From: a virus
Taxonomy: Duplodnaviria > Caudoviricetes
Strand: one strand, 5' to 3'
IMG/VR virus record: IMGVR_UViG_3300044576_000027
Location: 1 to 52,973 of that record
Length of the DNA: 52,973 bases
Made by a program: the position numbers and the translations under genes. The number at the start of each line of letters is the position of its first letter. The first letter of the stretch is position 1. The notes beneath the pieces were generated by a model, which worked only from the letters and a program-made list of their open reading frames with translations, was not told the origin of the DNA and made no database searches. This document shows positions 1-52,973 of the stretch, in pieces.

Positions 1-1348
1 GTTCTGTATATGAACCATAAGAAAGCCCAAAAATTAGTTTATTTAAGTCAACAGTAGGTAACTCTTCCATAGAGTATAAAGTACCCATATTTTCAGATTC
101 TGTTACCTTTAAAATCTTGTTGTCCTTATAGCATAGCATTCTTACATCGTTCATGATTTCTTCAAAACGCTTATTTGCCATACCTGGAGTAACAGAGAGT
201 GCCATTGTTTTTATTTGAAGAGCAGATAGCTCTTCGTTTGACACAGAAGCTCTTTTTAGTAAATCATAGATCTCTGTTTGAGGCATAGGTTTTTGAAATG
301 TATTTATGGCTGTCTCTCTTGTTTCTCTGAAGAATTTATATGCCTCCACGACATCATCTGCTGTAACTTTTCCTCTCATATTTAAAAATGCTATAATTGA
401 TGCAATTGATTTGATAAGTGATTCAGCACCTTTGTCATACTGATAACCATCAACCATTTTATTTTTGTTTGCAAAGTCAAATAGATCTTTTTTCACAAAG
501 AACAGTTCATCTTCATACTTGTCATCTGATAGCATGCCTATTGAAACAGTACTGTCATTTGCATAATACTCTTCATTGAATACATCTTCAACTTTTTTAA
601 ACCAACTATCAAGCTGTTTCTTAGCCTCAAATTTGACATATTCCTCTTGTTTTAACTCAACCTCTACTTGACTATCAATAACAATAGAACGTCTAAAAAA
701 TCCAGTGCTAGATAGCTTAATTAATACATTCATTGTCTTCTCGTCAACAGCAGACTTTGACCCCATAACTAATACATTTGTAGTGAAGTCCTTAATCTCC
801 TTTTGTTGAACATCATCTTTGGTTCCCTTGATGACTTTTCCTTTAAATTGTTCATCGTAGCACTCTTTGAGCTTTTGAATCATGGTTTTATACTCAGTGA
901 CATTGTCGAGAAATTCATCTCCACTAATATTAACAGAACCAATGTAGCACTTAGATATTGCATAGATTGTCGCATACAATCCCTCTGCACTACCCTCTGG
1001 AGCAATTTCAAGGTCTAAAGGAATTCTTCTTTTTACGTAATGCATTTCACTCTTTTTGTCATTAAGTTCAAATTCATTGTATCTTTCAAAAGCTTCTGTT
1101 AAAACATCACTGTAGTTTTCAAAAGCTTTTTCAAAATAATTCCTAACAACTTTTAAACTAAACGATTTTCCTGATCCTGAATTCGCATAAGCCATAAAGT
1201 AAAACTTAATTCTTGAACCATCAGGATTCTTGAAGTTGTATCTACTCATAGCAACCGAAGTATAATAAAGAATCATACCCTTTATTAGAAGTGGATCTGT
1301 TGTTCTGTCCGATGACTTCACAATCTCGTTTGTTATTTTTTCTAGCAT
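1..1348 (-). CDS. P-loop NTPase, N4 gp43-like primase/ATPase (3' end lies outside the window)
   Basis: Translated by hand from ATG 1348 (SD AAGGAG): MLEKITNEIV...; Walker A AYANSGSGKS and Walker B-like ISGDEF; lies near the helicase in the replication module. Confidence 0.65.
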   Translation of the reverse strand, partial: MLEKITNEIVKSSDRTTDPLLIKGMILYYTSVAMSRYNFKNPDGSRIKFYFMAYANSGSGKSFSLKVVRNYFEKAFENYSDVLTEAFERYNEFELNDKKSEMHYVKRRIPLDLEIAPEGSAEGLYATIYAISKCYIGSVNISGDEFLDNVTEYKTMIQKLKECYDEQFKGKVIKGTKDDVQQKEIKDFTTNVLVMGSKSAVDEKTMNVLIKLSSTGFFRRSIVIDSQVEVELKQEEYVKFEAKKQLDSWFKKVEDVFNEEYYANDSTVSIGMLSDDKYEDELFFVKKDLFDFANKNKMVDGYQYDKGAESLIKSIASIIAFLNMRGKVTADDVVEAYKFFRETRETAINTFQKPMPQTEIYDLLKRASVSNEELSALQIKTMALSVTPGMANKRFEEIMNDVRMLCYKDNKILKVTESENMGTLYSMEELPTVDLNKLIFGLSYGSYTE

Positions 1349-1360
1349 ATAAAACTCCTT

Positions 1361-1771
1361 TTATAAGTTGTCGTAGAAATATTTTGCTTCATCTAGGTAC
1401 TTCTGATTTCTTTTTACATACCAATAAAGAGAGAGATAGTGTTTCTCTGGGTTTATTCTCTTTCGTGGTTCATTTAAGATTATTTGTCTCATCATTCTCC
1501 ATGAAGTATTAATGTCTTTTAATTCCTTTTCTGCCTTGGAATAGGTATCTAAAAATCTTAGTCTATTTCCTTTTTCGGTAACATAAGAATAGATTAGCAT
1601 TGCATCTTCTCTTAATTTTAAAGTGATTTCTCCACTTTTAATAAATCCTTTATGTGGATCACCATTTCCAAATCTACTATAGAAATCATAAGCTTTTGGT
1701 GATGTTATGCTTAATGATTTCATATATGAATTTGACTTTCCTATAGAAGTGTTTTTATCTGTTGTTGTCAT
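1361..1771 (-). CDS. hypothetical protein
   Basis: 136-aa ORF with TAGGAG SD, tightly packed in the operon. Confidence 0.7.
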   Translation of the reverse strand: MTTTDKNTSIGKSNSYMKSLSITSPKAYDFYSRFGNGDPHKGFIKSGEITLKLREDAMLIYSYVTEKGNRLRFLDTYSKAEKELKDINTSWRMMRQIILNEPRKRINPEKHYLSLYWYVKRNQKYLDEAKYFYDNL

Positions 1772-1772
1772 A

Positions 1773-2132
1773 TTAGTCTCCTATCAAAAATTTAATTGTT
1801 TTCACTTCATCATCATTTAGTTTATTTGATGAAATAATATGTTCTGCATTCTTTCTTGCATCTTTCCACTCATCTGTTTCAATTAATAGTATCTTCAGTT
1901 TAAATAGATCTGATATTTCTACTTCAAATTTATTAGACACATCACACACAATAACTCTATTTTCGATTGATTGTGATTTGCTAGTAAAAAGTAACACTCC
2001 TCTTACATTATACTCATCTTTTGAAATTTCAATTGCTTCATCGAAGCTTGGAAGTCTCCATTTCTTGTGGTTCGATACATATTTTAATGCATCGTTTATT
2101 GTCATTTTTTTCTCTAAAATCTTATACTTCAT
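1773..2132 (-). CDS. hypothetical protein with DUF1566/Lcl-like WRLP motif
   Basis: KKWRLPSFDE motif; SD ATAGGAG. Confidence 0.55.
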   Translation of the reverse strand: MKYKILEKKMTINDALKYVSNHKKWRLPSFDEAIEISKDEYNVRGVLLFTSKSQSIENRVIVCDVSNKFEVEISDLFKLKILLIETDEWKDARKNAEHIISSNKLNDDEVKTIKFLIGD

Positions 2133-2153
2133 TTATTCTCCTATATTTTTATT

Positions 2154-3992
2154 TTAGAACGGAATAATATCTTCATCAATATCTATTTCTGGTAATGTTT
2201 TATTGGTTTCATCATTTTCTTGTTTCATGTCCTCAATCTCCTCCAAATGCTTCTTTTCAAGAAACTCTGGAAAGAATCTTAAGGCATAAATACTCTCTTG
2301 AATTTGCTTGTATTTATCTTCAAACTCTTCTGTTGTCACAACACCGTCTTTCAACATCTCAAACTGTCTCATTTTTGAAATATTATACATTTTTGTTTTC
2401 ATAGCTTTAAGCCAATGATCTTTTTTTTCCGGGTATTTTTCAATGACTTTGTAATAAATCTCTAGCAACCATTGAGCTGTTTTTTCATTGTAAAATCCAG
2501 ATACAGTTTTTGTATCATAATTTTGAGACTCATTGTCGTATTTTTTGTAAGTGTATCCAACAGTATCTCTTCCCCATTTATCTTGCATTGGTTCTGAATA
2601 TGCTGTCTTAACAAATGCTAAAAATATCAAGATTAATTCATCAATATTGTCTTCAAGATACCATTTGTCAAGAAGTTGACCTAATCTCATCTCTCCAAGT
2701 CTTAATCCATTAATTGACTCGTTAAACTCTTCGATATTTCTATCTATTGTATCTTGTGTTGATGGCACAAGGTGATGTTTATGGAATAGGAATTTGCTAT
2801 TCTTTAGACCTCTTTTTGCCATATACTCTTTAACCTCTTCATTGGAAGCATCTGGAGGCAATGGAGTAAAATGTTCTTGAAAGTCTCCAAAAGTAACCGA
2901 TGAACCACCGAAATCAATGAAATATTTTGGCATATCTCCATTCTTCCTGGATAGTCTGCCAAAACGTTGGACCGTAGTTGGAAGTCTCTTACTTGGTGCA
3001 GTCATAATTCCAATTTGAATATCGTCAACGCTAAAACCTGTAGTTAACTTATTTACTGACACAAGATGCTTTACTTCTACCTGTTCAATATTGTCAAAGT
3101 TAAAAAGAGTAATCTCTTGTTTAAGAGTAGTATTGTTTCTATATGACTCCATGATTTCACTTGCAAATTTAGTTGAACCATGATAGGCAAATGCATGATA
3201 ACCTCTACTTATTAATTCATTTGCAATTGCTTCACAAGCTTTTACATTTGTTGCAAACCATAGCGTCTTTGTCTCTCGTGGTTCCAAATCTTTTATTTCA
3301 CAGAATTCTTCATATTGGTCAACCATTGTTTTGATTGACTTCTTAGAGTACATTAATGATAACTCTTCATCTGAGTAGTCATTCTCATTTACTGTTGCTT
3401 TGTTTTCAAATCCATTTTGTAAATACAAATTACTAACATAAGTCTCTACATTGGCTACATATCCTCTTTCTATTAGTTCCCTATGCGTAACATTGCTTAC
3501 AATAGTTACGCCATAAAAACCTCTTCCAGATGGCTTATATGGTGTTCCTGATAAACCAACTATATATTCAGATTGAAGTTTACTCTTAATTGACTGAAAT
3601 CTTTTCCCATCTATTCTCACATGAAACTCGTCAACACAAATTAGAGATGCCTTTACCATTGAATATTTGTCGTTTATTCCAGCATAATAAGATGAGTCTA
3701 ATGCAATCTGTATTCTTTCATTTGGATTAAATTTTGCTGGATGTCCAGACAGTATAACACTATAAGAAATATTCATTGACAACAATGTTTCTTCCACCTG
3801 TTCGACTAAATCTGTATATGGAAGTGATATAAAAATTGTTCCATGATACTCTTTACATAATGCAGCGATGATATGGCTTTTTCCGTACGAAACTGAGCCG
3901 TATATACATTGCATTTTAATGTCTTCAAACTCAATATTCATTAATATTTCAGCTAGATCTTTTTCTTGGTAATCTCTCAGTTTTATTTCCAA
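2154..3992 (-). CDS. superfamily 2 DExH helicase
   Basis: Q motif LRDYQ, variant Walker A GSVSYGKS, DEFH, LSGTP, LTTGFSV, QRFGRLSR. Confidence 0.85.
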   Translation of the reverse strand: MEIKLRDYQEKDLAEILMNIEFEDIKMQCIYGSVSYGKSHIIAALCKEYHGTIFISLPYTDLVEQVEETLLSMNISYSVILSGHPAKFNPNERIQIALDSSYYAGINDKYSMVKASLICVDEFHVRIDGKRFQSIKSKLQSEYIVGLSGTPYKPSGRGFYGVTIVSNVTHRELIERGYVANVETYVSNLYLQNGFENKATVNENDYSDEELSLMYSKKSIKTMVDQYEEFCEIKDLEPRETKTLWFATNVKACEAIANELISRGYHAFAYHGSTKFASEIMESYRNNTTLKQEITLFNFDNIEQVEVKHLVSVNKLTTGFSVDDIQIGIMTAPSKRLPTTVQRFGRLSRKNGDMPKYFIDFGGSSVTFGDFQEHFTPLPPDASNEEVKEYMAKRGLKNSKFLFHKHHLVPSTQDTIDRNIEEFNESINGLRLGEMRLGQLLDKWYLEDNIDELILIFLAFVKTAYSEPMQDKWGRDTVGYTYKKYDNESQNYDTKTVSGFYNEKTAQWLLEIYYKVIEKYPEKKDHWLKAMKTKMYNISKMRQFEMLKDGVVTTEEFEDKYKQIQESIYALRFFPEFLEKKHLEEIEDMKQENDETNKTLPEIDIDEDIIPF

Positions 3993-4374
3993 AACTTATC
4001 TCCTTAATATTTTTTATGCCTATAGAGTAGCCATCACATGACATGTATTTGTAAATATCGGCAATAATATTCACATTAACTTTTCTATTTCTTTTAAAAT
4101 CATTTCTGTTAAAAATAGATAGAAATTCCTTAACCTTATTCTCTTTTATTTTTACCCATGAATGAGTTCTAATATACTCTTTGTCTCCATTGCTGTCAAA
4201 AGTAACAAGAGATGTAAAGAGAATATGTTTTCTATTAGCAATCATTCTATAATTACTAATATTTAGATTTGCATTAATTTCTAATGTCTCAATCGGTTTA
4301 TAATAGTCACTATCTTTATACTTTTTCTTGAACTTGCATTCAAGAATTTCAAGCTCTTTTTTTAACTTAAACAT
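3949..4374 (-). CDS. hypothetical protein (possible OB-like fold)
   Basis: 141-aa ORF overlapping its neighbours in the operon. Confidence 0.6.
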   Translation of the reverse strand: MFKLKKELEILECKFKKKYKDSDYYKPIETLEINANLNISNYRMIANRKHILFTSLVTFDSNGDKEYIRTHSWVKIKENKVKEFLSIFNRNDFKRNRKVNVNIIADIYKYMSCDGYSIGIKNIKEISFGNKTERLPRKRSS

Positions 4375-4825
4375 GTCTATCTTTGCCTCCTTTGGTTCTT
4401 ATAAAATCAAATAGAAATATTAATCCACCCCAAAATCCAATGGCTACTAAAATTTGTGGTACTTTTACCAATGCAATAACAATTAGAACCACAAAGAAAA
4501 CAGTAACAAATGGATTCATAAAGAATGACAATAATGTGATATTAGATACATCATCAATTGTTTTGCTTGCAGCATTTAATGAATTCATGTTATAGTCATT
4601 ATTGTAACCGTAGAATATCTCTTTTTTAAGGCTATCAATTTTATCAGAATAGTTGTTATTGTGTCTATATATCTTTTCAAATAATAAAACAGAAAGAAGA
4701 TTAATTCTATCTTCTTCAAGTTCAATTTCATAATCATGTAGTCCATGTGCCTTTGCAGAAATCAAAATATCATCTTTAAGGCTCTTAATTCTCTCATTGT
4801 CTTTTTTAGTGTATTCTCTAATCAT
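4367..4825 (-). CDS. membrane protein
   Basis: Two C-terminal hydrophobic helices. Confidence 0.65.
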   Translation of the reverse strand: MIREYTKKDNERIKSLKDDILISAKAHGLHDYEIELEEDRINLLSVLLFEKIYRHNNNYSDKIDSLKKEIFYGYNNDYNMNSLNAASKTIDDVSNITLLSFFMNPFVTVFFVVLIVIALVKVPQILVAIGFWGGLIFLFDFIRTKGGKDRHV

Positions 4826-4827
4826 TT

Positions 4828-5097
4828 TTATTTTCCTTGTTTTGTTTTTATATTGTCATTTTTTAATTTAACTGTAGTGTTAAAAAGTTCTTTTATTTCT
4901 ACATCTAAAACTCTCATACCAGCCTTTACTTGTACCATTACAGAGTCATTATTGTAGTATCCATTTGATCCTAGGTAGAATGGTTTATATCCTTTATTCG
5001 TTTTCCATTCTTCTGTTATGTCTTTTTGGTTCAAAAAATACATCCCAAACTCATCAACAAGGACTGCTCCATTCTCTTTGTATGTTTCATTATTCAT
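4828..5097 (-). CDS. hypothetical protein
   Basis: 89-aa ORF with AAGGA SD. Confidence 0.65.
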   Translation of the reverse strand: MNNETYKENGAVLVDEFGMYFLNQKDITEEWKTNKGYKPFYLGSNGYYNNDSVMVQVKAGMRVLDVEIKELFNTTVKLKNDNIKTKQGK

Positions 5098-5114
5098 GCT
5101 TTTCCTTTATTATT

Positions 5115-5123
5115 TTGGTATAA
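5115..5123 (+). promoter_or_regulatory. extended -10 promoter TGGTATAAT for the 5154 gene
   Basis: TGnTATAAT about 30 nt upstream of the AGGAG RBS/ATG. Confidence 0.6.
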
Positions 5124-5153
5124 TTTAATCCACAATAGCCAAAGGAGACTAAA

Positions 5154-5630
5154 ATGGATATAAAAAACTTCATTATAAAAAGAATAAATCAATCAAAATT
5201 CAAGAAAATAAAATATTTTCATAATAAAGATAGACTTACTTTATTTGATAAAAAAAATGAAGTTTATTATAATGGTGTTTTTGGGTTTAATAAAAACACA
5301 ATATACCTCACAGATTTAGTTATAGATTTAAATCTTGAAATAAATGATGTCAAATATAATCTCGATTTACTTGACTCTGTAAAAGGAAGAAGATACCAAA
5401 GAGACTATTTTAGAGACAACATCTACAACAAGATAAAAAAATGGTTCAAAAATAGAAAAATAGAAGATTCTGAACTTTTTGAATCTATCATTATGCTAAT
5501 AATAAACGGTTTCAATATTGAACCAATTTTAAAAGAACTTGATTTAATATATAAGAATGAAAACATTGAGTACTCAATGAAATCACTTCTTATGGCTAAG
5601 TATAGAGTATCAACTACTCTTCAATCTTGA
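5154..5630 (+). CDS. hypothetical protein (opposite strand, moron-like)
   Basis: Own promoter and AAAGGAG RBS; opposite orientation to the flanking operon. Confidence 0.7.
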   Translation: MDIKNFIIKRINQSKFKKIKYFHNKDRLTLFDKKNEVYYNGVFGFNKNTIYLTDLVIDLNLEINDVKYNLDLLDSVKGRRYQRDYFRDNIYNKIKKWFKNRKIEDSELFESIIMLIINGFNIEPILKELDLIYKNENIEYSMKSLLMAKYRVSTTLQS

Positions 5631-5814
5631 TTTCAACATACTTAAATTGGTGTCTGAAATCTTCATATACCCAATCTTTCTTTTCTGTATCTGTATAGGT
5701 GCAGAATTCTTCGTAATTTAGTCTTGTAGATGAAGCTAGATACTCTCCAGCATTCATATTGATAATCTCTTCCATTGCATTTGGTTCGTTTCCAGCGATT
5801 ACGATAATTTTCAT
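5614..5814 (-). CDS. hypothetical protein
   Basis: 66-aa ORF with AAGGAG SD. Confidence 0.55.
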   Translation of the reverse strand: MKIIVIAGNEPNAMEEIINMNAGEYLASSTRLNYEEFCTYTDTEKKDWVYEDFRHQFKYVEIKIEE

Positions 5815-5909
5815 CTATTACTCCTTTTTGTCTTTTTCTATATGTTTTTAAAAATATGCAACGATTGTGAACATAAAGCATGTTGCTACAAGTAAAATTA
5901 TACCAAACA

Positions 5910-6725
5910 TTATTTTGTCTTCCTTTTTTTCTTATCAACAAGCGAAATGTATTTTTCTGGAATATTTAGCTTTATCTCTTTTGCCAACATCTCCATTGGA
6001 TACCAAGCAGCACCAGAATCTCTTAGTTTAAGGAAATTTTTCAAGCTTCTTAGATTAATTGTCCAAATAAGACTAACTGATGTATTTTCTGTAACTAATA
6101 CATGTTTTGCATAGTCACCAGCATTACGTTTAGCTTTTGAGTTCATCAACTTATCCATCTTGTTTTCTATTCTATCATTTGAAAAAATAATTTCAATATG
6201 ATTTTTAGTAAAACATTTCTCTTCAAAAGTCCTCTTGTCTTTGTTGACCAAATGTGATAATCCCAGATACACATAATCTAAATCAAGTGTATTGTTTATC
6301 GTTGCAAATACATCTCGATTATATAACTCTACTAAGTCCTTAAATAGGTAAATACCTCTTCTAGTATTGTATGCAATATAAAATGCATACAAGAGCATTG
6401 ATGATGTGTATCTTGTTGATTTTACGCTATATGAAGCTAGTCTATGTCTTGCTAACTCTTGTAGTACACTTCTAGGTATCATTTTAATTTCAAAAGTTAG
6501 ATTGATATGTTCAATGACACTCTCGTGATGATATGACCATACAAGTTCATCTAGAAGTTTAGATTCATCTACATCACATACACCATAGTATTTTTTATCT
6601 CTAATAAAATCACAATCACTTTTATCAAAGCTATCGTAGCAAGTTCTAGCTGCAACTTCACCAAGAAATAATGGTGTGGCATGTAGTAATGTGACTGATG
6701 GTTCTTTAAATGTATTTTGTTTCAT
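5910..6725 (-). CDS. thyX: FAD-dependent thymidylate synthase
   Basis: HHESVIEH, ELARHR-x7-STRY ThyX motif, INLRSLKNFLKLR. Confidence 0.95.
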   Translation of the reverse strand: MKQNTFKEPSVTLLHATPLFLGEVAARTCYDSFDKSDCDFIRDKKYYGVCDVDESKLLDELVWSYHHESVIEHINLTFEIKMIPRSVLQELARHRLASYSVKSTRYTSSMLLYAFYIAYNTRRGIYLFKDLVELYNRDVFATINNTLDLDYVYLGLSHLVNKDKRTFEEKCFTKNHIEIIFSNDRIENKMDKLMNSKAKRNAGDYAKHVLVTENTSVSLIWTINLRSLKNFLKLRDSGAAWYPMEMLAKEIKLNIPEKYISLVDKKKRKTK

Positions 6726-7308
6726 TTTCTTTCTCCTCTGCTAATCTATCTAATACCTTGCAGATCTCGTCTTCATCCCATGCAATAGAATCTTGAATTT
6801 GTTTTCCATACCTATTGTCTATAAGCTCTTTAACATAAGTTTCTCTAGGTACATACTTGACAATACCAATCTTAACTAAATATCTCCATGTTTCTCTTTC
6901 TCCTAAAATATCAGGATAATACATTTTAATAATCTTTCTAAGAGATTTAGTATCGTCAGAGTAAGTAACCAATTTGTGCTTTTGTTGCTCTTCAATAAGT
7001 TTTTGTTGATATTTGATTAGTTGTTCTGTTTGTTCTTCGATAAGTATTAGAAGATTTGCTCTAAGATTATCATTAAACTTGGAAGCAAACAACAAAGCTG
7101 TAAATTTATTCATTACAATAGTTTTATAAGTATTACCTCTTTTTGTTGTAAAGTCACGCTCATCATATGAGAGGAGCGTAAGAATATCTCCTGAAAGGTT
7201 ATCAAGCATCTTATTAAAATCTCTTTTAACATTATCATGTCTTTTACCTGTTGCATCAGCAAACATCTTCAATGTGTATCCGTCTGTTATGGCTGTTAAA
7301 TTATCCAT
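6706..7308 (-). CDS. Rha-family phage regulatory protein
   Basis: FADATGKRHDNVKRDF N-terminal Rha motif; C-terminal domain related to the paralogs. Confidence 0.75.
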   Translation of the reverse strand: MDNLTAITDGYTLKMFADATGKRHDNVKRDFNKMLDNLSGDILTLLSYDERDFTTKRGNTYKTIVMNKFTALLFASKFNDNLRANLLILIEEQTEQLIKYQQKLIEEQQKHKLVTYSDDTKSLRKIIKMYYPDILGERETWRYLVKIGIVKYVPRETYVKELIDNRYGKQIQDSIAWDEDEICKVLDRLAEEKENETKYI

Positions 7309-7336
7309 TTAGTCTCCTATTAGTTTATTTTGAAGC

Positions 7337-7391
7337 AAAAACTTCAATATGCATAAAGAATCGCCAAAAACTTTATACATATTGAAACTCT
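7337..7391 (-). ncRNA. leader hairpin with UUUUUGGCGAUU loop
   Basis: Stem TTCAATATGTATAAAG/CTTTATGCATATTGAA; loop matches those at 8343-8416 and 39022-39099. Confidence 0.55.
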
Positions 7392-7453
7392 TGTTGTTGC
7401 TTTATTCTCGGTGGTTCTTGAATAGATATTAACAGAACCATCGAATAAAAAAA

Positions 7454-8257: not shown

Positions 8258-8318
8258 ATAATTCCTTATACTTGTGTGCTAAACAAGATTTAAAAAATGT
8301 AAGTTGATTAATTTATAT

Positions 8319-8416
8319 GTGAGAGATTGGCGATTTCTCACTTAAACAACTTCAATATACCTATTTAGCAGAGAAATCGCCAAAAAACCTCTAAATAGGC
8401 ATACTGAAATTGTTTA
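8319..8416 (-). ncRNA. two-hairpin leader with loop-loop complementarity
   Basis: ~26-bp stem with G-U pairs; loop TTGGCGATTTCTC complementary to GAGAAATCGCCAA in the downstream GTGAGA/TCTCAC hairpin. Confidence 0.65.
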
Positions 8417-8417
8417 C

Positions 8418-8456
8418 ATAATTATACTCTATTGTTGATTCATTCTCATTGGTTCT
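8418..8456 (-). promoter_or_regulatory. cassette promoter repeat (GAACCA...TATAAT)
   Basis: 39 nt, one mismatch to 9575-9613; -10 box at 8421-8426. Confidence 0.7.
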
Positions 8457-8499
8457 TGAAGAATATTGATAGAACCATCGAGAATAGATTAAAACTTGG

Positions 8500-9410: not shown

Positions 9411-9455
9411 AGGTAATCCTTTCTGGACATTGAAATGTAATTTGATTTTTGAGTA

Positions 9456-9572: not shown

Positions 9573-9574
9573 TT

Positions 9575-45077: not shown

Positions 45078-45089
45078 AAGGAACAATAA

Positions 45090-45581
45090 ATGCAAGACAA
45101 TAATTATAGCTTCAGTGACTATCTAGATAAGAATTATAGTATAGCTGATGCGTATGGATATAGTGGTAACAAGTCATCTGATAATGGACTACTAGGTGGA
45201 CTATTTGGTGGTAAGACCAAATCTTCATCTGGTGGTTCTGGATTTGGTTTTAATTCTGGAACTTTAAGTACTGGACTCAATACATTGAAAATTGTAGGTG
45301 ATCTATGGCAAGGATATAACGCTATAAAAATCGGTAATGAGCAAAACAAGCTAAATAGAGAAGCTTTTGAATTTAACAAGAAATTGAGTACAGACAATTT
45401 CAATTTGGCAAAAGATTCTTATGATAGAAGAGTTAAACGTTCTGAAAATATTTCTAAACAATTCGCAAATGCATATCAAAATTATCGAAACGATCTGAAA
45501 ATTGCTAATGTAAATAACAATAAGCAAAATATTAGCAAGCCAAATAAAAATAATAGAGATAAAGGAGATATTTATGGCTAG
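45090..45581 (+). CDS. N4 gp52-like internal virion protein
   Basis: Gly-rich segment plus helical C-terminus; synteny. Confidence 0.55.
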   Translation: MQDNNYSFSDYLDKNYSIADAYGYSGNKSSDNGLLGGLFGGKTKSSSGGSGFGFNSGTLSTGLNTLKIVGDLWQGYNAIKIGNEQNKLNREAFEFNKKLSTDNFNLAKDSYDRRVKRSENISKQFANAYQNYRNDLKIANVNNNKQNISKPNKNNRDKGDIYG

Positions 45582-46659
45582 TGATGCATTTCAATGGAGA
45601 GGTGCTGGTCAGCAAATATCTGCACCTAGACTATCAAATTATGGTATCTTTACTGATGCTAGAAAACATATAGATCAATATCTGCAAGAGCAAGATAAAG
45701 CAAAGAAACTTGAAGAAGAGAGAGCTAGACAAGACAAGCTTATTGCTAATGATAGGGCTTTTAAAGAGCTAATGCAGAGAAAAAGATTTGGTCATGACGA
45801 ACAATTAAGGAGAGACAATCAAGCATTTCAAGAAAACATGTTTAATAAGAAATCTGATTTTGAAAAAGATTTGCAGAAACAAAAAATTGGTCATGACGAG
45901 CAGATGCAAAAAGATAGAATAAATGGTCAAATAACCCTAGAGAATCTAAGATATTCACATAGTTTGGGAGAGATTGGTGCTAGAGCGTCCAAACAGAAAG
46001 AAGTTGCTAGATATAAAGCTGGTCTAAATAAACCCATAAAAGGTGAAAAGGTTGGTGGTATTGATTTATCTAAACTTGTTAAATATGACGTTTTGGGAAC
46101 CACCAAGAAGAAGATAATTGACGAAAGTATTCCACTAGGCGATGATTACAAAAACAAAGTAAATGAGGCTAGTAAATATTTTGGTGATATTAAAAACTAC
46201 AAAGATAAGTTAAAAGAAAAAGGCTTATCCAATAGTGAACGTAAATCATTGGAAAGAAAAATAAGCCTAACAAAAGCAAATGCACTAAATTCAGATTCAC
46301 TAGAAGAGTACAAAAAGAAACTTGCTGATAAAATTAGGACTAGAGAAGTTGTTGTTCCGACAAAAACAAGATTGAATATTGAAGAGACTACAAAAAACTT
46401 TTCAAATTTATTTGTAAACAGCAACTTAAAAGGTCCACAGATAAAAGCAGCACAGGATTATTTAAAGAGACTATCTAAAGAGCAAGATGATACATACAGC
46501 AATACATTAGAGGCTACAAAAAAGGCTTTAGATTCAAACGTAAAGAATGCACAAAGTTACCATGATAGCCTAATTAAAAATGGAGTAGATCCTAAAACTG
46601 CTGAAAGTTCAACGAAAGAAAAATTTAAATCTGCTGCAAGATACGTACAGTTTTACTAA
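45574..46659 (+). CDS. N4 gp51-slot internal virion protein
   Basis: Charged coiled coil; synteny. Confidence 0.5.
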   Translation: MASDAFQWRGAGQQISAPRLSNYGIFTDARKHIDQYLQEQDKAKKLEEERARQDKLIANDRAFKELMQRKRFGHDEQLRRDNQAFQENMFNKKSDFEKDLQKQKIGHDEQMQKDRINGQITLENLRYSHSLGEIGARASKQKEVARYKAGLNKPIKGEKVGGIDLSKLVKYDVLGTTKKKIIDESIPLGDDYKNKVNEASKYFGDIKNYKDKLKEKGLSNSERKSLERKISLTKANALNSDSLEEYKKKLADKIRTREVVVPTKTRLNIEETTKNFSNLFVNSNLKGPQIKAAQDYLKRLSKEQDDTYSNTLEATKKALDSNVKNAQSYHDSLIKNGVDPKTAESSTKEKFKSAARYVQFY

Positions 46660-46755
46660 AAAATAACTATTCTCCGAACCACAAGGAGAATAGAATTACT
46701 CAAATAAATCAAAAAATGTTATAATTGTTAAAAACAAATATCAAGGAATATAAAT

Positions 46756-49700
46756 ATGTCACTATATGATAAAATGTATGCAGAGAATAGAGCATTAGGC
46801 GTAGCACAAGATGTTAAAGATAATGAATTCAAGACAGCAAGAGAAAGAGATAAACTTGATACTATTGCATACAATGAATATCTTAAGAATGGTGAAATAT
46901 TGTATAATAATGGCAATCCTGTATCAGATGATCCACGAAATGAAATAAAACTTGATAGTAATGGTAAGCCATATAATACTGGAGCAATAATTGGTGGGCT
47001 AAAAGAAGCTTCAAATTTTATTGTAGATAATCTAGCACCAGATAGTTTAAAGTCAGATTTACATTCAAATATATATAAAGATGGAAGAATTTATGATACA
47101 TCAAATAAATCTGATTCTGGTATATTTTCAAAATATAGTGCCTCAAAAATGAAAGATTTTCTTGAAAATGTTGAAGATGATCCAAATGCAAAAGGTACAC
47201 TTTATGCAGAGAGAGTCTTTGCTGGTCTTAATCCCGATGGTTCGGAGAAGTATTATATTAAATATGGATACTCAAAAGATGGTTTAGTTGAGAGACAAGC
47301 ATCAAATAAAGGACTTGCCACAGAGATATTATGGCAAAAAAGATTTGCTAATGCAGAACAGGCTGAGAATAGAATAAATCAATTGAATTTTGAAGCAAAT
47401 AACAACGTTTATGATGTAGGTAATGGTAAGGTATCAGGCTTTGGTTCTGGATACTCTGAGATAGCAAAGAATGATATTTTAGGTATGTTAAATGTGAACC
47501 AGACAGACGAACAATTGACTGCAAACTATAATAAGAGTCTTGAAGATGCAAATAACTATAAATTTCAAAGAAAAGATGCTGATAAAAATAATACATTCTA
47601 TGAAAAATATGTAAAACTTGGTGACTATGGTGATGCATTGCAATACGGTGGCGTAAAACTTGTAAATGATTTGGCAGATACTGCTCTAACTGCTGTTGGT
47701 GCATTAGGTAATTATGTTGGACTTGAAAATGATTTAAAGAATAATATATTCGACAAATGGAGTAATAACGCTGCAAAAATAACTGGTTACAATGAAGCAG
47801 ACTTTAATGCTGCCATAAAAGAATCTGTTGGAAGATTTAAAGGTGGAGACTATTTTGGTGCAATAACTGGAGATTTTTCAACATTAGCTGAATCAATATT
47901 CTCTTCAGCTCCAGATATGGCTTTAATGTATGCTTCAGGTGGAGCTTCAATATTATCAAAATCAAGCAAAGGTAAAAAATATTATTCCTTGATTAAGAAA
48001 TCTGAAGAGGCACTAAAAAATGGAAACAAAAATCTAGCAGATAGTTTTTTATCTAAAGCTAACAAAATAAAAGACGATATTATAAAAACAGGCACAAATG
48101 CAGAGAAGGAATTTACTAATCTAACTGGAGAAATTAGCTCTATAAGAGATATAGCTTCAACTATAGGTAAAGACTATGGGTTTAATGCTATTGTTGCAAA
48201 ACAGACAAATGATGTTGTTGAGCAAAGAATAGCTAATGGTGACAAAGATATAACTGTAGGCGAGGTTGCTTCAATAGCTCTATCTCAATATTTAGCTTCA
48301 TCACTTGACAAACTTGCACTAGAAGAAGTTTTAAAGGCTCCAAAGACTATAGGAGTATTAAGAAAAGCTGTATCATCTATAACTGATAAAAGCAAGATTG
48401 CTTCTATTGGTGCAAAACTTCTTCAAAAGTCAATAGATGTTGTAAAAGCTTCTGGTGTAGAAGCTGGACAAGAGTATTTGCAAACATGGACTGAAGTTCT
48501 TGGAGCAGATGTTGGTGTAGATGGAAAAACACTAATAGAAGCATTAAAGGATGAATCAAACAATGATGAAGTACTTGGTGCTATGTTAGCTGGTGGTGTA
48601 TCTGGTGGTTCTGTTCATGGTATATCAAGTGCAGTAAACATTGTAACAGATAAATCTTTAGGTGCCATAGACACTGTAAAGCAAAATAGAGCAAATAGTA
48701 TAGATACTGCTTATGTAGAAAGACCAATGGATGATACATATAAAACAATAGTATCTAAAGAAGACTTTGATTCTCCAGAGCATACTGCTGAAGATAAACT
48801 GTATAGCATAAAAGAATTTCTTGACAATGATAGTGAGCATGACATTGAAGAAGATATAAAAAAAGAGTTACCAAAAAAGATAGTAGAGGTATCAATTGAG
48901 AATGCTATAGATAAAAAAGATCCTAATATTGCATCTCAAAACTTATCATCAATGCTGTTGAATATAAAGTCAAGTGATGTTAATAATAAAGAAAATATGA
49001 TAAGTGACTTGATAAGAATATCTAAAGAACATGGTGTTGATGTATCAAATGACATTCTTGAAACAGATGCAATTGATGACATGTTTAAAGCGATGTACGG
49101 TGCATCATCAAATAAAAAAGGTTCATCAATAAGAGAACCACAAACAGAAGATATAACAAATAATCCTATAGATTTTTCAGTAAACAATGAAGCTAGATCT
49201 GTTAAAAATAGGATGTATGGAAAATTAGATGACTCAATATCTTTAATGAGAAAAAAGATAGGTAGATATTCTAAACTTGGTCTAGACATAGCTCCATTAA
49301 CAAATGCATTAAAAACATTAGAAAAGTACAACAACACTAAAAAAATAAATGGAAATATAGGTTCAAAAGACATAAGAGATGTCTCAAATGAGATAAGTCA
49401 AATAGGTTTTATCTCCGATGATGGTTCACTAATTGCACCATCTATATCTGCTTATGATAAATTTTTACCAATGCTATTTGATCCATCTTCTTCAAAGAAT
49501 ATAGGTCCAATAAGAAGTGGATTTGTAAGCTTAAAGGGTTTTGATAGCTTCATTAGAAGTAGATATTCTCATATGTCTTCAATTGAAAACAATGAAGACT
49601 TGTTGATACAGAAACTAAAAGAATTAGATGAGTTGTCCGATACAATATCAAAAACAAACTCATCTATAGTGTCATCAGAATCAATATCAGATAGCAATAA

Positions 49701-51153
49701 AGCATCATATTCAAGTAAAATGATAGAGTTGCAAGATATCGTTAATGCTACAAGAAGTAGATTTTTTGACAAACTTGTAAATAGAAATATATCATATAAC
49801 ATTGCAAGAAAAGCAAACAGTGATCTTGACTACATTCCAACAGAAGAGATAGATAAAGCAATTCAAGATATAAAGAGTAATTCTTTAGACAAGAATTATA
49901 TAATGTCTAAATTTAAAGAAATAGCAAATAATGGATACATCTCTCCATCTGATGCTTCCAGGCTAATAGATGCTTCAAATATAACATATAGCAGTGATAG
50001 TACATTTGGTGGTTCAAAAAGTAATGTACAATCGGATATTAAAAAGGATGATGTATCCAAAAAAATAAATGATTTTGTTATAAAATTTCAAGCAAGTCAA
50101 AAGAATAAAAATGTGTCAAAGACAATAAGCGATAACGATTTTGATAAAGTTATGGCTGGCATGTTAAAGGCAATAAGCAATAATAGAACTGATGAAGTAA
50201 GTTTATTGTCAAAAGCTATTTCTGCTAGAAAATTAAGTGTTGAACAGATAAAGAAACTTTTTGCAATCGTAAATGCAAACAATAATTTTAGTCGTAAGGC
50301 TAAACAACTAAAAGAAGCAAAAGAACTTGAACTAGCTTCACTTGATGCTAAATCAAAAATAGCAATGCTTAAGAAATTTAAAAATGATTTAAATAAGGAA
50401 TTTAAAGACAGTAATCATTTTACAGTTTCTGATACAAAAGAATTTTCATCTGCTATTGGAATAATTTACAATGAATTATCAAAAGAAATAGAAGATACAT
50501 ATAATGAGATATTAAGCATATCTAGCGAGATTGACTATGTAAAATCAAATAGACTAGACAAGTCTAAAGATGCACAAAAAAAATCAAGTTCAAAAAAAAT
50601 AAGAGACAAGATAGGTAAAGCAATAAAAAAGTTCATATCGAGAATTTCAATTTTAAAAGATAGATTAAAAAAGGTAAAAGCTAAAAACAGAAATGATTTA
50701 AGAGATAAGAACTCACTTGATAAAATAATATTCAAAATACTGGGAGAGTCAAAAAGAAGTCATCAGAGAAAAGTAACAGAGAACAACTATAATGAAATAC
50801 TGTCACAAATAAACAAGACAATTTCATTGCTAAACGATAAAGGTAACAATAATGCGAGTGAACAAATAGATTCAAATATAAACGAAAAAAGAACCACAAA
50901 CACAGAAAGCACAAAAGGAAATATAGAAAGTATTGGTAAATATAGTAAAGTAAATGTAACTGATGGTTCAAAAAATATTGATAACAATATTACAATTATA
51001 AACAAAGATGATATAATTACTAAAATAAGTGAAGAACTTGTCAATTCGTATCCAGGTAAAGTTGATAATATAATAAATAATTTATTGAAAATCAAGGACA
51101 AAGATAAAGCAAATAGAATGCTGGAAATATTAAACGAATTCTCAAAATGTTAA
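46756..51153 (+). CDS. large ejection-type virion protein (vRNAP N-terminal-like)
   Basis: GVEAGQEYLQ...GAMLAGGVSGG ejection-protein pattern; occupies the vRNAP slot; no polymerase motifs recognised; TGTTATAAT promoter at 46717. Confidence 0.55.
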   Translation: MSLYDKMYAENRALGVAQDVKDNEFKTARERDKLDTIAYNEYLKNGEILYNNGNPVSDDPRNEIKLDSNGKPYNTGAIIGGLKEASNFIVDNLAPDSLKSDLHSNIYKDGRIYDTSNKSDSGIFSKYSASKMKDFLENVEDDPNAKGTLYAERVFAGLNPDGSEKYYIKYGYSKDGLVERQASNKGLATEILWQKRFANAEQAENRINQLNFEANNNVYDVGNGKVSGFGSGYSEIAKNDILGMLNVNQTDEQLTANYNKSLEDANNYKFQRKDADKNNTFYEKYVKLGDYGDALQYGGVKLVNDLADTALTAVGALGNYVGLENDLKNNIFDKWSNNAAKITGYNEADFNAAIKESVGRFKGGDYFGAITGDFSTLAESIFSSAPDMALMYASGGASILSKSSKGKKYYSLIKKSEEALKNGNKNLADSFLSKANKIKDDIIKTGTNAEKEFTNLTGEISSIRDIASTIGKDYGFNAIVAKQTNDVVEQRIANGDKDITVGEVASIALSQYLASSLDKLALEEVLKAPKTIGVLRKAVSSITDKSKIASIGAKLLQKSIDVVKASGVEAGQEYLQTWTEVLGADVGVDGKTLIEALKDESNNDEVLGAMLAGGVSGGSVHGISSAVNIVTDKSLGAIDTVKQNRANSIDTAYVERPMDDTYKTIVSKEDFDSPEHTAEDKLYSIKEFLDNDSEHDIEEDIKKELPKKIVEVSIENAIDKKDPNIASQNLSSMLLNIKSSDVNNKENMISDLIRISKEHGVDVSNDILETDAIDDMFKAMYGASSNKKGSSIREPQTEDITNNPIDFSVNNEARSVKNRMYGKLDDSISLMRKKIGRYSKLGLDIAPLTNALKTLEKYNNTKKINGNIGSKDIRDVSNEISQIGFISDDGSLIAPSISAYDKFLPMLFDPSSSKNIGPIRSGFVSLKGFDSFIRSRYSHMSSIENNEDLLIQKLKELDELSDTISKTNSSIVSSESISDSNKASYSSKMIELQDIVNATRSRFFDKLVNRNISYNIARKANSDLDYIPTEEIDKAIQDIKSNSLDKNYIMSKFKEIANNGYISPSDASRLIDASNITYSSDSTFGGSKSNVQSDIKKDDVSKKINDFVIKFQASQKNKNVSKTISDNDFDKVMAGMLKAISNNRTDEVSLLSKAISARKLSVEQIKKLFAIVNANNNFSRKAKQLKEAKELELASLDAKSKIAMLKKFKNDLNKEFKDSNHFTVSDTKEFSSAIGIIYNELSKEIEDTYNEILSISSEIDYVKSNRLDKSKDAQKKSSSKKIRDKIGKAIKKFISRISILKDRLKKVKAKNRNDLRDKNSLDKIIFKILGESKRSHQRKVTENNYNEILSQINKTISLLNDKGNNNASEQIDSNINEKRTTNTESTKGNIESIGKYSKVNVTDGSKNIDNNITIINKDDIITKISEELVNSYPGKVDNIINNLLKIKDKDKANRMLEILNEFSKC

Positions 51154-51166
51154 CAAGGAATACTAT

Positions 51167-52973
51167 ATGCCAAACAATTGTGATTTAAGTAGTGCTTTAG
51201 AAGAGCTGTCAAAAATTGGACTTTATTCGAAAGAAAATGATGCCTTTAGAGATATTATTGTTGAGATATCAAAGTCAAATAAAACACATCCATTATCTAA
51301 AAGTAACGATTTGGAATTTATAAAATCAAGAACAATTAGTGAAATAGATAACTCATTTGAATCAATTGATGGAATCAATAGCTCATTAAAGAAGTCAATA
51401 GAAAACAAAATAGATTCACTTAAGACATCAATATTAAAAGATTTTAATAGTATAGAGAAATATAGAAAAGAAAATATATATTTACATTACAAGCGTAGCA
51501 GTATAAAATACCTAAGAAGCATTCTTAAAAAAACTAAAAGCGATAGAGAAAAACATGGCAAGCACTATCTAAAATTAAAAAAAAATAATGATATTGCAGT
51601 AAAAAGAAATATTGAACTGTCAAAAGATTTATTAATATTAGAAAAAGAACTTAATCGTGAAAATAGTAAAATTGATGCCAACAACAAGAGAGGTGTAAAA
51701 TCTTACTATGAAAAGTTAAATGAGTTAACAAACAAGATCAATGAGATAAAAGAAGAAATACATAAAAATGATGAACACATAAATAGATTTAACATATATG
51801 ACAAAAATGATATCGATCTAAAGTACTCTGAGAAAATAAAAGATTTAGAGTACAAAATAGGTACACTCTCTGAAAATACAACTGGAGATAAAAGTTCTCA
51901 TGCTGAGAATGTATTAAATACAATAAAATCAAAAATATTAAATGTATTTAAGTATATAAGAGAAAAAATAAAAAATATATCTAAAAAAAGAGAAGACGTT
52001 AGGTACCTAGAATCATTAATTGATAAACTTGAAAATGGACAAAATTTATTAGATATTGATAATGATAGATTGAAACTAGAATTTAAAATAACAAGTGGAG
52101 AGTATATTGATGATACAGTCAAAGAATCCTATGATAAATTAACAAATAGTAATGAAAATATTAAGAATATTGTTGAAATAAAAAGTACACCACTTACAAA
52201 AGCAATTGATATAATGATTAGAATGAGAGACAAAGGCACAAAAGAAGTCTTTTCTACTATATCAAGACTGCAAGGTCATAATGTAAATATTGGAAAAATA
52301 AGCAGTGATGATATAGATATACTATCAAATATTTCAAGAAAAATTGGATTTTCAACATTAGACATTAATAAAGCTGTTGGTTCAACAAAAATAAAAGAAG
52401 ATACATCAATTGATAGTGGAAACAATGTATTTTATGTTTTAAATGACATTTTTAAAACAGAAAATGGTTTGTTAGGTAAAACTCAAATGATGGCTATAGC
52501 TATAGGTGTATCTGACGCTATCTCAAATTGGTCTATAAGAGCCAACAATCTTAGGAGAAAAGATGTTGACCAGTTATCAAAAGATACTGGGATATCACTT
52601 GAAGATGCAATGATTTTAAAAAGCCATCTTGAATCTGGAAAAATACCAACAAGACTAATGATAAAGGAAACTTCTCAGTTAGTAATGGATTCAATTGGAA
52701 TATCTGTAAAAAAAGATGTTGATCACAAAACAAAGGATATTATTGAATCTGGAATAGAAGCTTTAATTTTGGCTCAATTAAAATCATTCATTGGCAAACA
52801 AAATAAATCATCAATGTCAACAGAAGTTGTGGATATTGGGACTAAAAAATACACAATGATTTCGTTGAATGAGAAGTATATTGAAGATATTTTGGGATAC
52901 AAGATAAATGACATATCAAAGTCGATAAGAAACTTCTCATATATTGATGAAAATAGGTTAAAAAATACTGTAT
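51167..52973 (+). CDS. large protein running off the window end (possible vRNAP polymerase part)
   Basis: ATG 51167 with AAGGA SD; translated by hand at both ends in the same frame with no stop seen (MPNNCDLSSALEELSK...). Confidence 0.6.
   Translation, partial: MPNNCDLSSALEELSKIGLYSKENDAFRDIIVEISKSNKTHPLSKSNDLEFIKSRTISEIDNSFESIDGINSSLKKSIENKIDSLKTSILKDFNSIEKYRKENIYLHYKRSSIKYLRSILKKTKSDREKHGKHYLKLKKNNDIAVKRNIELSKDLLILEKELNRENSKIDANNKRGVKSYYEKLNELTNKINEIKEEIHKNDEHINRFNIYDKNDIDLKYSEKIKDLEYKIGTLSENTTGDKSSHAENVLNTIKSKILNVFKYIREKIKNISKKREDVRYLESLIDKLENGQNLLDIDNDRLKLEFKITSGEYIDDTVKESYDKLTNSNENIKNIVEIKSTPLTKAIDIMIRMRDKGTKEVFSTISRLQGHNVNIGKISSDDIDILSNISRKIGFSTLDINKAVGSTKIKEDTSIDSGNNVFYVLNDIFKTENGLLGKTQMMAIAIGVSDAISNWSIRANNLRRKDVDQLSKDTGISLEDAMILKSHLESGKIPTRLMIKETSQLVMDSIGISVKKDVDHKTKDIIESGIEALILAQLKSFIGKQNKSSMSTEVVDIGTKKYTMISLNEKYIEDILGYKINDISKSIRNFSYIDENRLKNTV

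Follow-up and report, generated by a model that had tools for sequence, protein, structure and literature searches.

GAACCA, an oriented and over-represented word of N4-like phages, and a candidate helicase-primase reader

GAACCA in a contig of a distant N4-like phage

The viral contig IMGVR_UViG_3300044576_000027 of IMG/VR, a single record of 52,973 bp that makes up the whole assembly and is called the window below, carries the genes of an N4-like podovirus, with the replication genes on the − strand and the structural genes on the + strand, a layout as in N4 but reversed. Scattered over both gene arms is the hexamer GAACCA, the subject of this report. An exact count on the + strand gave 49 copies of GAACCA and 73 of its complement TGGTTC, 122 in total, the first at position 12 and the last at 52378, or about 1 per 434 bp. 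With a GC content of 30.4%, Markov models of order 0 and order 1 predict 15.7 and 17.4 copies on the two strands together, and models of orders 2 and 3 both predict 32.7; the order-4 expectation, 90.5, is high because the 5-mers of that model already hold the signal. GAACCA ranked first of 2080 hexamer pairs under orders 1 to 3 (z scores of 25, 15.6, and 15.6), and the hexamers ranked next, AGAACC, AACCAC, and GGTTCA, overlap it. The base following GAACC (136 copies) is A in 122 cases, T in 14, and C or G in none; no single-base variant of GAACCA exceeds 57 copies, and the positions flanking the word hold little information. Among the 60 permutations of the same composition (A3C2G1), the median is 17 copies, one-seventh of the observed number, and the runner-up, AGAACC (61 copies), again overlaps the motif.

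Codons were shuffled synonymously 300 times, with proteins and codon usage kept and intergenic DNA fixed. This null expects 52.2 ± 4.7 copies and never exceeded 66, which gives the observed 122 a z score of 14.8, the highest of all hexamers; the next nonoverlapping word reaches 6.7. The enrichment of GAACCA is too high for chance or codon usage. An earlier note on this DNA, made from the sequence alone, had reported about 120 copies on both strands, roughly 1 per 430 bp, where a zero-order model should give about 14. The exact counts bear this out and the positions quoted there are all correct, although the GC content was underestimated at about 28%. The enrichment also survived both comparisons that the note had named as critical, one with a null preserving proteins and codons and the other with hexamers of equal composition.

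Within genes the word occurs 104 times, in all six frame and orientation classes, and 18 further copies are intergenic or at gene boundaries. The coding copies comprise 51 read as xxT-GGT-TCx (Gly-Ser), 17 read as GAA-CCA (Glu-Pro), and 36 in the four other classes. Gly-Ser pairs are written GGT-TCN in 57 of 82 cases, against 27 expected from codon usage, and the codon before GGT-TCN ends in T in 51 of these 57, against 39% T-ending codons overall; this is direct evidence that selection acts on the DNA and not on the protein. The intergenic DNA, 3603 bp, has 18 sites where 0.9 would be expected, a 20-fold excess. The claim, made earlier, that use in several frames and between genes implies selection at the DNA level is therefore upheld. 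GAACCA is a functional DNA word, held at a high and even density on both strands by selection.

The features of the window are collected in Table 1. A portal, a major capsid protein, a large terminase, and a gp43-type gene are all present, and open reading frames (ORFs) run off both ends of the contig, which is therefore a fragment; its gene content marks the window as part of the genome of a podovirus distantly related to N4. PHROG 2135, to which the gp43-like gene was assigned, is the family of N4 gp43 ("dns"). The encoded protein is 25% identical to residues 61 to 260 of N4 gp43 (E value of 4e-7) and 23% identical to the gp43-like protein of a 100-kb relative, G006 (E value of 3e-8). The gp43-like primase that the earlier note had placed in the window is thus there, but only as the N-terminal, helicase-like half; the primase half is lost at the contig end. 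A Pfam scan of the fragment gave no hit, and a search with this partial protein in three related records found nothing. Two very large ORFs on the + strand, 46756-51153 (1465 amino acids) and 51167-52972 (at least 602 amino acids, cut by the contig end), stand at the place of N4 gp50, the virion RNA polymerase, and match no PHROG family. The large terminase ORF, with 1061 amino acids, is about twice the length of N4 gp68 (530 amino acids), and its PHROG terminase matches are split between residues 136-559 and 548-1039, so that it may contain an inserted element, for example an intein, or a fused domain.

The nearest relatives of the window, identified by alignment of portal homologues, are uncultured contigs with portals 33 to 63% identical, some of them from records of about 100 kb. 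A nucleotide search with 7.1 kb of the window found no match among named phages, and a single-protein search for related viral contigs yielded none that was confirmed.

Table 1. Positions of the word, of its close pairs, and of genes in the window
Feature	Coordinates	Strand	Remarks
GAACCA, 49 copies (5'-TGGTTC-3' on −)	12..50896	+	Starts: 12, 936, 1215, 2902, 3175, 4486, 5520, 7435, 7773, 8472, 9772, 10936, 13352, 13520, 14269, 14525, 16112, 16321, 16600, 16654, 17548, 17846, 18183, 18737, 18965, 19352, 20630, 21403, 23251, 23711, 25736, 26000, 31253, 34021, 34570, 34963, 35703, 36373, 36957, 38979, 39929, 41573, 42884, 43715, 46097, 46676, 47496, 49135, 50891
GAACCA, 73 copies (TGGTTC on +)	820..52383	−	Starts: 820, 1466, 2068, 2589, 3279, 4393, 5027, 5442, 5782, 6699, 7412, 8450, 9607, 10244, 10698, 11528, 12068, 12608, 12953, 13250, 14553, 15107, 15640, 16071, 16825, 18482, 18845, 19653, 19987, 20455, 21049, 21172, 22024, 23278, 24438, 24564, 24834, 25266, 26052, 26918, 28063, 28355, 29000, 29828, 30483, 30784, 31678, 33081, 33192, 33369, 33726, 35134, 35673, 35859, 37086, 37176, 37455, 37575, 38961, 39911, 41204, 41546, 42389, 43232, 44255, 45233, 47238, 47442, 48606, 49422, 50010, 50964, 52378
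Inverted pair TGGTTCT-N15-AGAACCA	7412..7440		Between two Ant/KilA-N/Rha-like genes, upstream of − strand gene 6706-7308; flanks like those of pair at 8450 and single site 9607
Inverted pair TGGTTCT-N14-AGAACCA	8450..8477		Upstream of − strand gene 7454-8257; TATAAT 23 nt after GAACCA on − strand; context recurs at single site 9607
Everted pair GAACCA-N22-TGGTTC	14525..14558		Intergenic, between 14480 and 14832
Inverted pair TGGTTCT-N10-AGAACCA	38961..38984		After Ant-like gene 38289-38945, before gene 39181; conserved element of ~36 bp in common with pair at 39911
Inverted pair TGGTTCT-N10-AGAACCA	39911..39934		Upstream of gene 39984-40346; TATAAT 21 nt after GAACCA
gp43 ("dns") homologue, candidate reader	2..1348	−	N-terminal 449 amino acids; DUF3987-type helicase-archaeo-eukaryotic primase fusion family; PHROG 2135 "DNA primase," E value 4e-19
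SF2 helicase (ResIII + Helicase_C)	2154..3992	−	Replication module, adjoins gp43-like gene; PHROG and Pfam
Large terminase	19064-22249	+	PHROG/Pfam; 26% identity to N4
Portal	32227..34611	+	PHROG 1216, E value 3e-83; 24-27% identity to N4-like portals, 26% to N4 gp59
Major capsid protein	36805-38103		PHROG/Pfam; 28% identity to N4

Five promoter-like intergenic regions of the window carry the word as a pair, either inverted (TGGTTCT-N10-16-AGAACCA) or everted, in some cases 21 to 23 nt before a TATAAT. Several lie beside Ant/KilA-N/Rha-like genes, of which the window has four paralogues, at 6706-7308, 7454-8257, and 8679-9482 on the − strand and at 38289-38945 on the + strand; upstream of each of the three − strand genes is a similar stretch of about 45 bp with GAACCA in it and, in two cases, TATAAT. 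All eight close pairs in the window are inverted, and within its clade 29 inverted pairs stand against 1 same-strand pair within 40 bp. Inverted pairs also occur in N4 and ZC08, where 9 of 10 and 8 of 9, respectively, are in coding DNA and only 1 of 10 and 1 of 9 are intergenic. Paired sites at promoters were found in the window only.

Distribution, strand bias, and spacing in N4-like phages

Alignment of portals gave 56 related loci of at least 9 kb, in each of which all hexamers were scored; GAACCA ranked first in four, one of them Pseudomonas phage ZC08, and seventh in a fifth. A set of 21 N4-like genomes or large fragments was compared, consisting of the window, 13 named phages, and 7 uncultured records, and a signal was called clear if [G/A][A/T][A/G]CCA or a 7-mer extension of it was among the top five hexamers or top five heptamers. 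Clear signals were present in 18 of the 21; the signal was weak in Presley (z score of 6.1) and DSS3P2 (z score of 5.2), and the fragment G007 had none. The complete N4 genome has 220 copies of GAACCA, against 85.4 ± 6.7 in the synonymous shuffle, and 110 of GAACCAG, against 35.2 ± 4.4; the corresponding numbers for ZC08 are 196 against 71.1 ± 6.4 and 133 against 33.1 ± 4.4. GAACCA is the top hexamer in both, as well as in G7C and the uncultured G002, G003, and L001, and it ranks third or fourth in Ea9-2, JWAlpha, and PhiImVa-1.

The form of the word varies between clades. It is GAACCA(G) in N4, G7C, ZC08, Ea9-2, G002, G003, L001, and G005 and GAACCAA in JWAlpha and PhiImVa-1; the variants AAACCA and AAGCCA characterize LUZ7, LIT1, P184, Nepra, and Ab2712, and GAGCCA(A) characterizes G004. 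In G006 (100 kb), GTACCAG occurs 117 times against 8.2 expected (z score of 38), with 7-mer enrichment of up to 14-fold over an order-2 Markov null. Positions 1 to 3 of the commonest variant are purine (R-A-R) in 20 of the 21 genomes, and position 2 is T in G006. The same genome (loci L161 to L165) has AGTACCA 119 times against 17 in place of the GAACCAG-type word; two such words placed back to back would form the palindrome CTGGTACCAG.

The hosts of these phages belong to Escherichia, Klebsiella, Pectobacterium, Erwinia, Pseudomonas, Acinetobacter, Achromobacter, Vibrio, and Ruegeria, and the GC contents range from 29 to 58%, which rules out a host factor as its reader. The identical word is enriched in phages of five of these genera (Escherichia, Pseudomonas, Achromobacter, Erwinia, and Vibrio). 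No such word is enriched in the T7 genome. The 4.64-Mb chromosome of E. coli K-12 has 2012 copies of GAACCA, where a uniform expectation is about 2266, and 720 of GAACCAG, and is not enriched; its density of 1 per 2307 bp compares with 1 per 319 bp in N4, which is 7 to 10 times denser.

Genomes were oriented, by means of the portal, with gp43 on the top strand and the portal on the bottom strand. The gp43-coding strand was the richer in the word in 15 of 15 genomes (pooled counts of 1290 and 805, ratios of 1.25 to 2.68, binomial P = 2e-26), and G004, G005, and G006, oriented by the gp43 gene itself, show the same bias, for 18 of 18. The excess extends throughout the genome, without a switch point, and has the same sign in oppositely transcribed arms (58/47 and 72/43 in N4, 25/22 and 48/27 in the window); the bias therefore belongs to the DNA strand and not to the transcript. 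Operators and stoperators would be oriented with transcription, whereas this word follows the absolute strand. Analysis of related phages and of the strand bias along the genome were among the checks that the earlier note had named.

At fourfold-degenerate sites the strand opposite gp43 is slightly skewed toward G and T, an effect that is small and confounded by the differing expression of the gene arms. Of 12 genomes, 10 have a negative GC component of the absolute skew and 11 a negative TA component, and the skew correlates loosely with motif asymmetry (Spearman coefficient of −0.55, P = 0.07). These skews hint that lagging-strand synthesis usually takes the complement of the gp43-coding strand as its template. 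The replication origin and fork direction of N4 were not found in a literature search.

The − strand set of the window is both the richer and the more evenly spaced. Its mean gap is 716 bp, and the coefficient of variation (CV) of its gaps is 0.575, whereas randomly placed sites give 0.98 ± 0.11 and none of 5000 simulations reached so low a value; the largest gap is 2005 bp, where 3499 bp would be expected, and each 4-kb bin holds 4 to 7 sites across both gene arms. The + strand set has a mean gap of 1060 bp and a gap CV of 0.86, indistinguishable from random. Sites thus lie on both strands at an Okazaki-like spacing without long gaps. In the 15 genomes, 28 of 30 strand sets had a gap CV below 1, and for 10 genomes the value was significantly low on one strand or both; mean gaps per strand across N4-like genomes are 0.5 to 1.1 kb. 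Same-strand neighbors within 40 bp are scarce (59, against about 96 expected), whereas opposite-strand neighbors within that distance are as frequent as expected (91, against about 87). Even spacing and the scarcity of same-strand neighbors indicate that selection seems to act on coverage per strand and not on particular positions.

The fate of individual sites fits the same picture. Of the aligned N4 sites, 43 of 155 are unchanged in G7C (control hexamers, 16.6%), 29 of 126 in JWAlpha (7%), 24 of 121 in Ea9-2 (8.9%), and 14 of 52 in ZC08 (6.6%). This retention of 20 to 28% is 1.7 to 4 times that of control hexamers but low in itself, as expected if sites turn over while the density on each strand is kept.

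A local feature of the window concerns the + strand set, which has 10 copies of GAACCA between 16000 and 20000, compared with 1 to 5 in the other complete 4-kb bins. This cluster surrounds 18130-18181, where the two gene arms diverge.

Candidate readers of the word

We reasoned that a word which is independent of the host, conserved within a phage lineage, drifting by single letters, required every 0.5 to 1 kb on both strands, selected against where a copy would be redundant, and biased toward one strand should be read by a phage machine moving along single strands, for which the replication fork is the obvious candidate. The reader is probably a phage-encoded machine common to the N4-like phages (Schitoviridae and the marine relatives of about 100 kb). 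Tentatively, and with a little less than even confidence, we propose that the word is the template recognition site of the gp43-type helicase-primase; both the identity of the reader and its role in priming are what we infer from the pattern of sites and the make-up of the protein. The putative reader would combine a DUF3987 helicase with an archaeo-eukaryotic primase that has a PriCT-1 helix bundle, and the single-stranded template 5'-TGGTTC-3' (5'-CTGGTTC-3' in N4) would mark the site at which the primase begins an Okazaki primer. Such a primer would start with purines, as those of most primases do, either as the complement of the word (R-A-R-C-C-A) or just 5' of it, as in pRN1. By chance, a site of 6 to 7 bases would occur once per 7 kb per strand at 30% GC. 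This is too rare to hold lagging-strand fragments near 0.5 to 1 kb, so that the genome would have to carry extra copies, which synonymous sites, the choice of Gly-Ser and Glu-Pro codons, and intergenic DNA would supply. The strand that serves more frequently as lagging-strand template would bear about 1.5 times more sites.

What is known of gp43 is consistent with such a role. In the part of its description that concerns us, N4 gp43 is essential for replication and consists of a DUF3987 (MCM-like) helicase and a C-terminal archaeo-eukaryotic primase (PMC4889955). Full-length gp43 of N4 and of ZC08 both contain PriCT_1 above the Pfam curated cutoff, at the C terminus in N4. The helix bundle of the pRN1 primase is described as a PriCT-1 domain in the relevant section of one report (PMC5862659), and the experiments summarized in another show this primase to prime only on GTG templates, to start 5' of the triplet, and to require the bundle (PMC2965215). 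The gp43 family is confined to these phages, with 469 records whose organism spread is the same as that of the portal, and full-length homologues are present in 4 of 5 uncultured records searched and 12 of 13 named genomes. A comparison of the N4 gp43 sequence with solved structures gave nothing below an E value of 0.5, and a Pfam scan of the G006 gp43-like protein gave no hit. Of the readings offered in the earlier note, that of a primase site fits best, since the word extends over N4-like phages irrespective of host, lies on both strands every 0.5 to 1 kb with underdispersed gaps, is biased toward the gp43-coding strand, and is accompanied by PriCT-1; the analogy with T7 primase that it drew is weak.

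Several observations weigh against the assignment to gp43. T7 primase sites are enriched only 1.1- to 1.6-fold in T7 (GGGTC, 94 against 57 to 66; TGGTC, 141 against 84 to 125; GTGTC, 85 against 68 to 99) without strand bias (118 against 117), and at this experimentally known primase site the genome-wide enrichment is thus not comparable. Known primase specificities are mostly 3 nucleotides, and 6 to 8 would be unusual. The motif class follows the phylogeny of every conserved protein, so nothing singles out gp43; all 12 conserved proteins compared share one phylogeny, which makes comparison of the motif class with any particular protein uninformative. The DNA polymerase, exonuclease, Sak4-like protein, single-stranded-DNA-binding protein (SSB), RNA polymerase II, and terminase are equally placed candidates. 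The 38.5-kb fragment G007 encodes a gp43 homologue yet has no clear word, and Presley and DSS3P2 have only a weak one. The seventh base in the window is C in 49 copies, T in 35, A in 28, and G in 10, whereas the nearest relatives mostly have G. To the nucleotide skew, small and confounded as described above, the word itself adds slightly. The palindromes and inverted pairs at the window's promoters resemble a hairpin, or the target of a protein that binds DNA as a dimer, more than they resemble a primase site. In the literature searched, we met no primer, Okazaki-fragment, or binding data for N4-like phages.

Among the alternatives, it is unlikely, though far from fanciful, that the word is an oriented signal for some other traveling machine encoded by the phage, such as a Chi-like regulator of the exonuclease/Sak4-like/SSB module, a nicking-enzyme site, or a helicase or packaging-motor signal; in the nicking variant, an intracellular nicking enzyme would provide the 3' ends from which strand-displacement synthesis starts. 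Over-representation and strand bias of a short word are the mark of Chi, of FtsK-orienting polar sequences (KOPS), and of similar polar words, and the N4-type word is likewise over-represented and strand-biased, without a switch point. The exonuclease (gp42), the Sak4-like protein (gp44), SSB (gp45), and the gp24/gp25 pair are found in 12 to 13 of the 13 named genomes, as gp43 is, and E. coli Chi, GCTGGTGG, has CTGGT in common with CTGGTTC. However, the bias amounts to only 56 to 73%, with both orientations strongly enriched; with 1 site per 320 to 430 bp, the word is roughly tenfold denser than Chi is in E. coli; even spacing per strand and avoidance of same-strand neighbors are not a known property of Chi; and, as for nicking, we know of no report of nicked N4 virion DNA. 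Quite improbable, by our estimate, is a reading of the words as half-sites of a phage protein that is abundant and binds DNA, perhaps as a regulator of transcription or as a single-stranded-DNA-binding cofactor of phage RNA polymerase II, and that would bind single words genome-wide and palindromic pairs at promoters. The five promoter-like regions with their pairs, some 21 to 23 nt before TATAAT, the consistent inversion of close pairs in the window and its clade, and the four Ant/KilA-N/Rha-like proteins of the window all speak for it. So does the recruitment of RNA polymerase II in N4-like phages through single-stranded-DNA-binding cofactors (gp2 and Drc), of which Drc can coat DNA, as described in portions of two reports (PMC7145618, PMC9163698). 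Against it, the strand bias is absolute and untied to the direction of transcription, and the inverted pairs of N4 and ZC08 are mostly coding. The copies at 7412, 8450, and 9607 lie in paralogous cassettes and may be duplicates of one gene cassette. The word is conserved across these phages, whereas gp2 and Drc, by the account in the relevant portion of one report, are not (PMC7145618), and the mapping of transcription starts and termination in LUZ7, in the passages that describe its motifs, gives hairpin and sigma70-like motifs and not AAACCA (PMC9163698, PMC7145618). The earlier note had considered a protein coating the genome: the inverted pairs at the Ant/KilA-N/Rha-like promoters to which it appealed are real, but a simple binder of double strands leaves the constant strand asymmetry unexplained. 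For the window's clade, the promoter palindromes keep open a DNA-binding protein or a hairpin.

The probability that the word is a host-related target, whether a restriction, bacteriophage exclusion (BREX), or phosphorothioation site or a host Chi, is very remote. The word does contain both phosphorothioation cores, GAAC/GTTC (Dnd) and CCA (Ssp), and the earlier note had raised host modification on this ground, with a methylase site or a Chi-like site as further options. Defense targets are normally depleted in phages, however, and are specific to a host, whereas this word is enriched, and that in phages infecting five genera as well as in uncultured phages of 30 to 58% GC; the depletion seen in the window hits other words (CTCAAG, 0 against 22; CATATG, 5 against 20). 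A host Chi should be specific to the host species and enriched in its chromosome, and E. coli is not enriched (2012 against about 2266). Host restriction, phosphorothioation, and host Chi are contradicted by the host independence of the enriched word. Almost negligible, finally, is the chance that the word is a functionless by-product of amino acid, codon, or dinucleotide usage. In its favor, Gly-Ser (GGT-TCN) accounts for half of the coding copies and Glu-Pro (GAA-CCA) for another 17, both written with favored codons, and the shuffle expectation of 52 is well above the zero-order value of 16. The shuffles have nevertheless already refuted it, with a maximum of 66 in 300 against 122 observed. 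Against it stand also the 18 intergenic copies in 3.6 kb, the T-ending codon ahead of 51 of 57 GGT-TCN pairs, the enrichment of the same word across genomes that differ in GC content (30 to 58%) and codon usage, and the preferential retention of aligned sites.

The proposal that gp43 reads the word can be carried further, to a "priming code" that we regard as somewhat doubtful. The template specificity of gp43 would then be 6 to 8 nt long and coevolve with the genome (GAACCAG, GAACCAA, GAGCCAA, AAACCAG, AAGCCAG, and GTACCAG, with GAACCAC in the window), and a site per 0.5 to 1 kb of each strand would be kept, down to the choice of Gly-Ser codons. If this were true, the phage replisome would prime about 7 to 10 times more per kilobase on phage than on host DNA, a built-in discrimination between self and nonself in replication.

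Comparison with known systems and other over-represented words

The closest parallels to a priming word are the sites of T7 gp4 primase (core 5'-GTC-3'; 5'-GGGTC/TGGTC/GTGTC-3') and of pRN1 ORF904 (GTG), where a short single-stranded word sets the start of the primer and is needed on both strands at the spacing of Okazaki fragments. The 5'-TGGTTC-3' of N4-like phages resembles 5'-TGGTC-3' of T7, and the specificity of the pRN1 enzyme needs the PriCT-1 helix bundle that N4 gp43 also bears. In contrast to these sites of 3 to 5 nt, the N4-type word has 6 to 8 nt, drifts between clades, and is known here from sequence alone; T7's own sites are barely enriched and unbiased, whereas the N4-type word stands 2.3-fold above its codon-preserving null. 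Chi (5'-GCTGGTGG-3' in E. coli), KOPS of FtsK, and the SpoIIIE recognition sequences (SRS) are likewise over-represented, oriented oligomers; a machine that moves along the DNA reads them, and their strand bias follows the direction in which a DNA process runs. They differ in being host encoded, species specific, and far sparser and in switching orientation at the origin and terminus; the N4-type word belongs to a phage lineage, is independent of the host, recurs every 320 to 430 bp, and is enriched on both strands with no switch point.

The stoperators of cluster A mycobacteriophages share with it the scattering of dozens of short asymmetric sites through phage coding DNA and their reading by a phage protein. 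Stoperators are 13 to 14 bp long and number 20 to 40 per genome; their orientation follows transcription, and the protein they bind is the immunity repressor of temperate phages, whereas the N4-type word has 120 to 220 copies of 6 to 8 bp oriented by absolute strand. The DNA uptake sequences and uptake signal sequences (DUS and USS) of Neisseria and Pasteurellaceae are also genome-wide words in all frames, under selection at the DNA level, with frequent inverted pairs and lineage dialects; they are 9 to 12 nt long, occur in cellular genomes, and are read by competence machinery, and phages have no uptake process. The kind of feature, an oriented over-represented word, is thus known; its form here, host independent, with clade dialects across a phage lineage, at 1 per 320 to 430 bp, is new. 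No description of GAACCA, GAACCAG, AAACCA, or any over-represented N4-like word was found in the literature searched, which did not cover the older N4 papers, so a prior mention is possible.

Coliphage N4 has served as a model for about 60 years, yet all that is known of gp43 is that the gene is essential and that its product has the predicted architecture of a helicase-primase. A word that takes up 110 to 220 positions of the N4 genome, persists between phages whose portals are only 26% identical, shifts by single letters, and is strand biased provides a testable hypothesis. Were gp43 the reader, this would be the clearest case of primase specificity shaping a whole genome and would explain part of the codon usage; if it is not, the word still marks some directional process common to a large and ecologically important phage group. 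In either case, the word and its variants form a simple signature for finding N4-like contigs in metagenomes and grouping them into clades and a constraint to respect when N4-like phages are recoded.

Other words also stood out. N4 itself (loci L103 and L107) has a second-ranked word, GGGTCA/TGACCC(A), with 69 copies against 25 and, as a 7-mer, 43 against 10.7. In the Vibrio phage PhiImVa-1 (loci L135 to L138), runs of at least seven C (or G) occur 37 times against 0.4 expected. ACGGCG/CACGGCG is prominent in both of the Acinetobacter phages, Ab2712 (L106) and Presley (L147 to L150), in addition to ACGTACG/GTACGTA in Ab2712 and CTGCAG (81 against 24) in Presley. More distant podovirus contigs have over-represented words of their own (for example, L042, L043, L048, L049, L054, L056, and L077, as well as L040, L045, L050, L057, L062, and L092): one group has CCTGCA with GCAGGA (together TCCTGCA), and another has the rare ACCGGG/CCGGGA at 10 to 20 times expectation.

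Measured against the synonymous shuffle, some words are depleted in the window. CTCAAG/CTTGAG is absent altogether (22.0 ± 4.3 expected), and CATATG (5 against 20), TCCTCA (6 against 25), and AAGATC (14 against 39) are scarce; this depletion looks like avoidance of host restriction sites.

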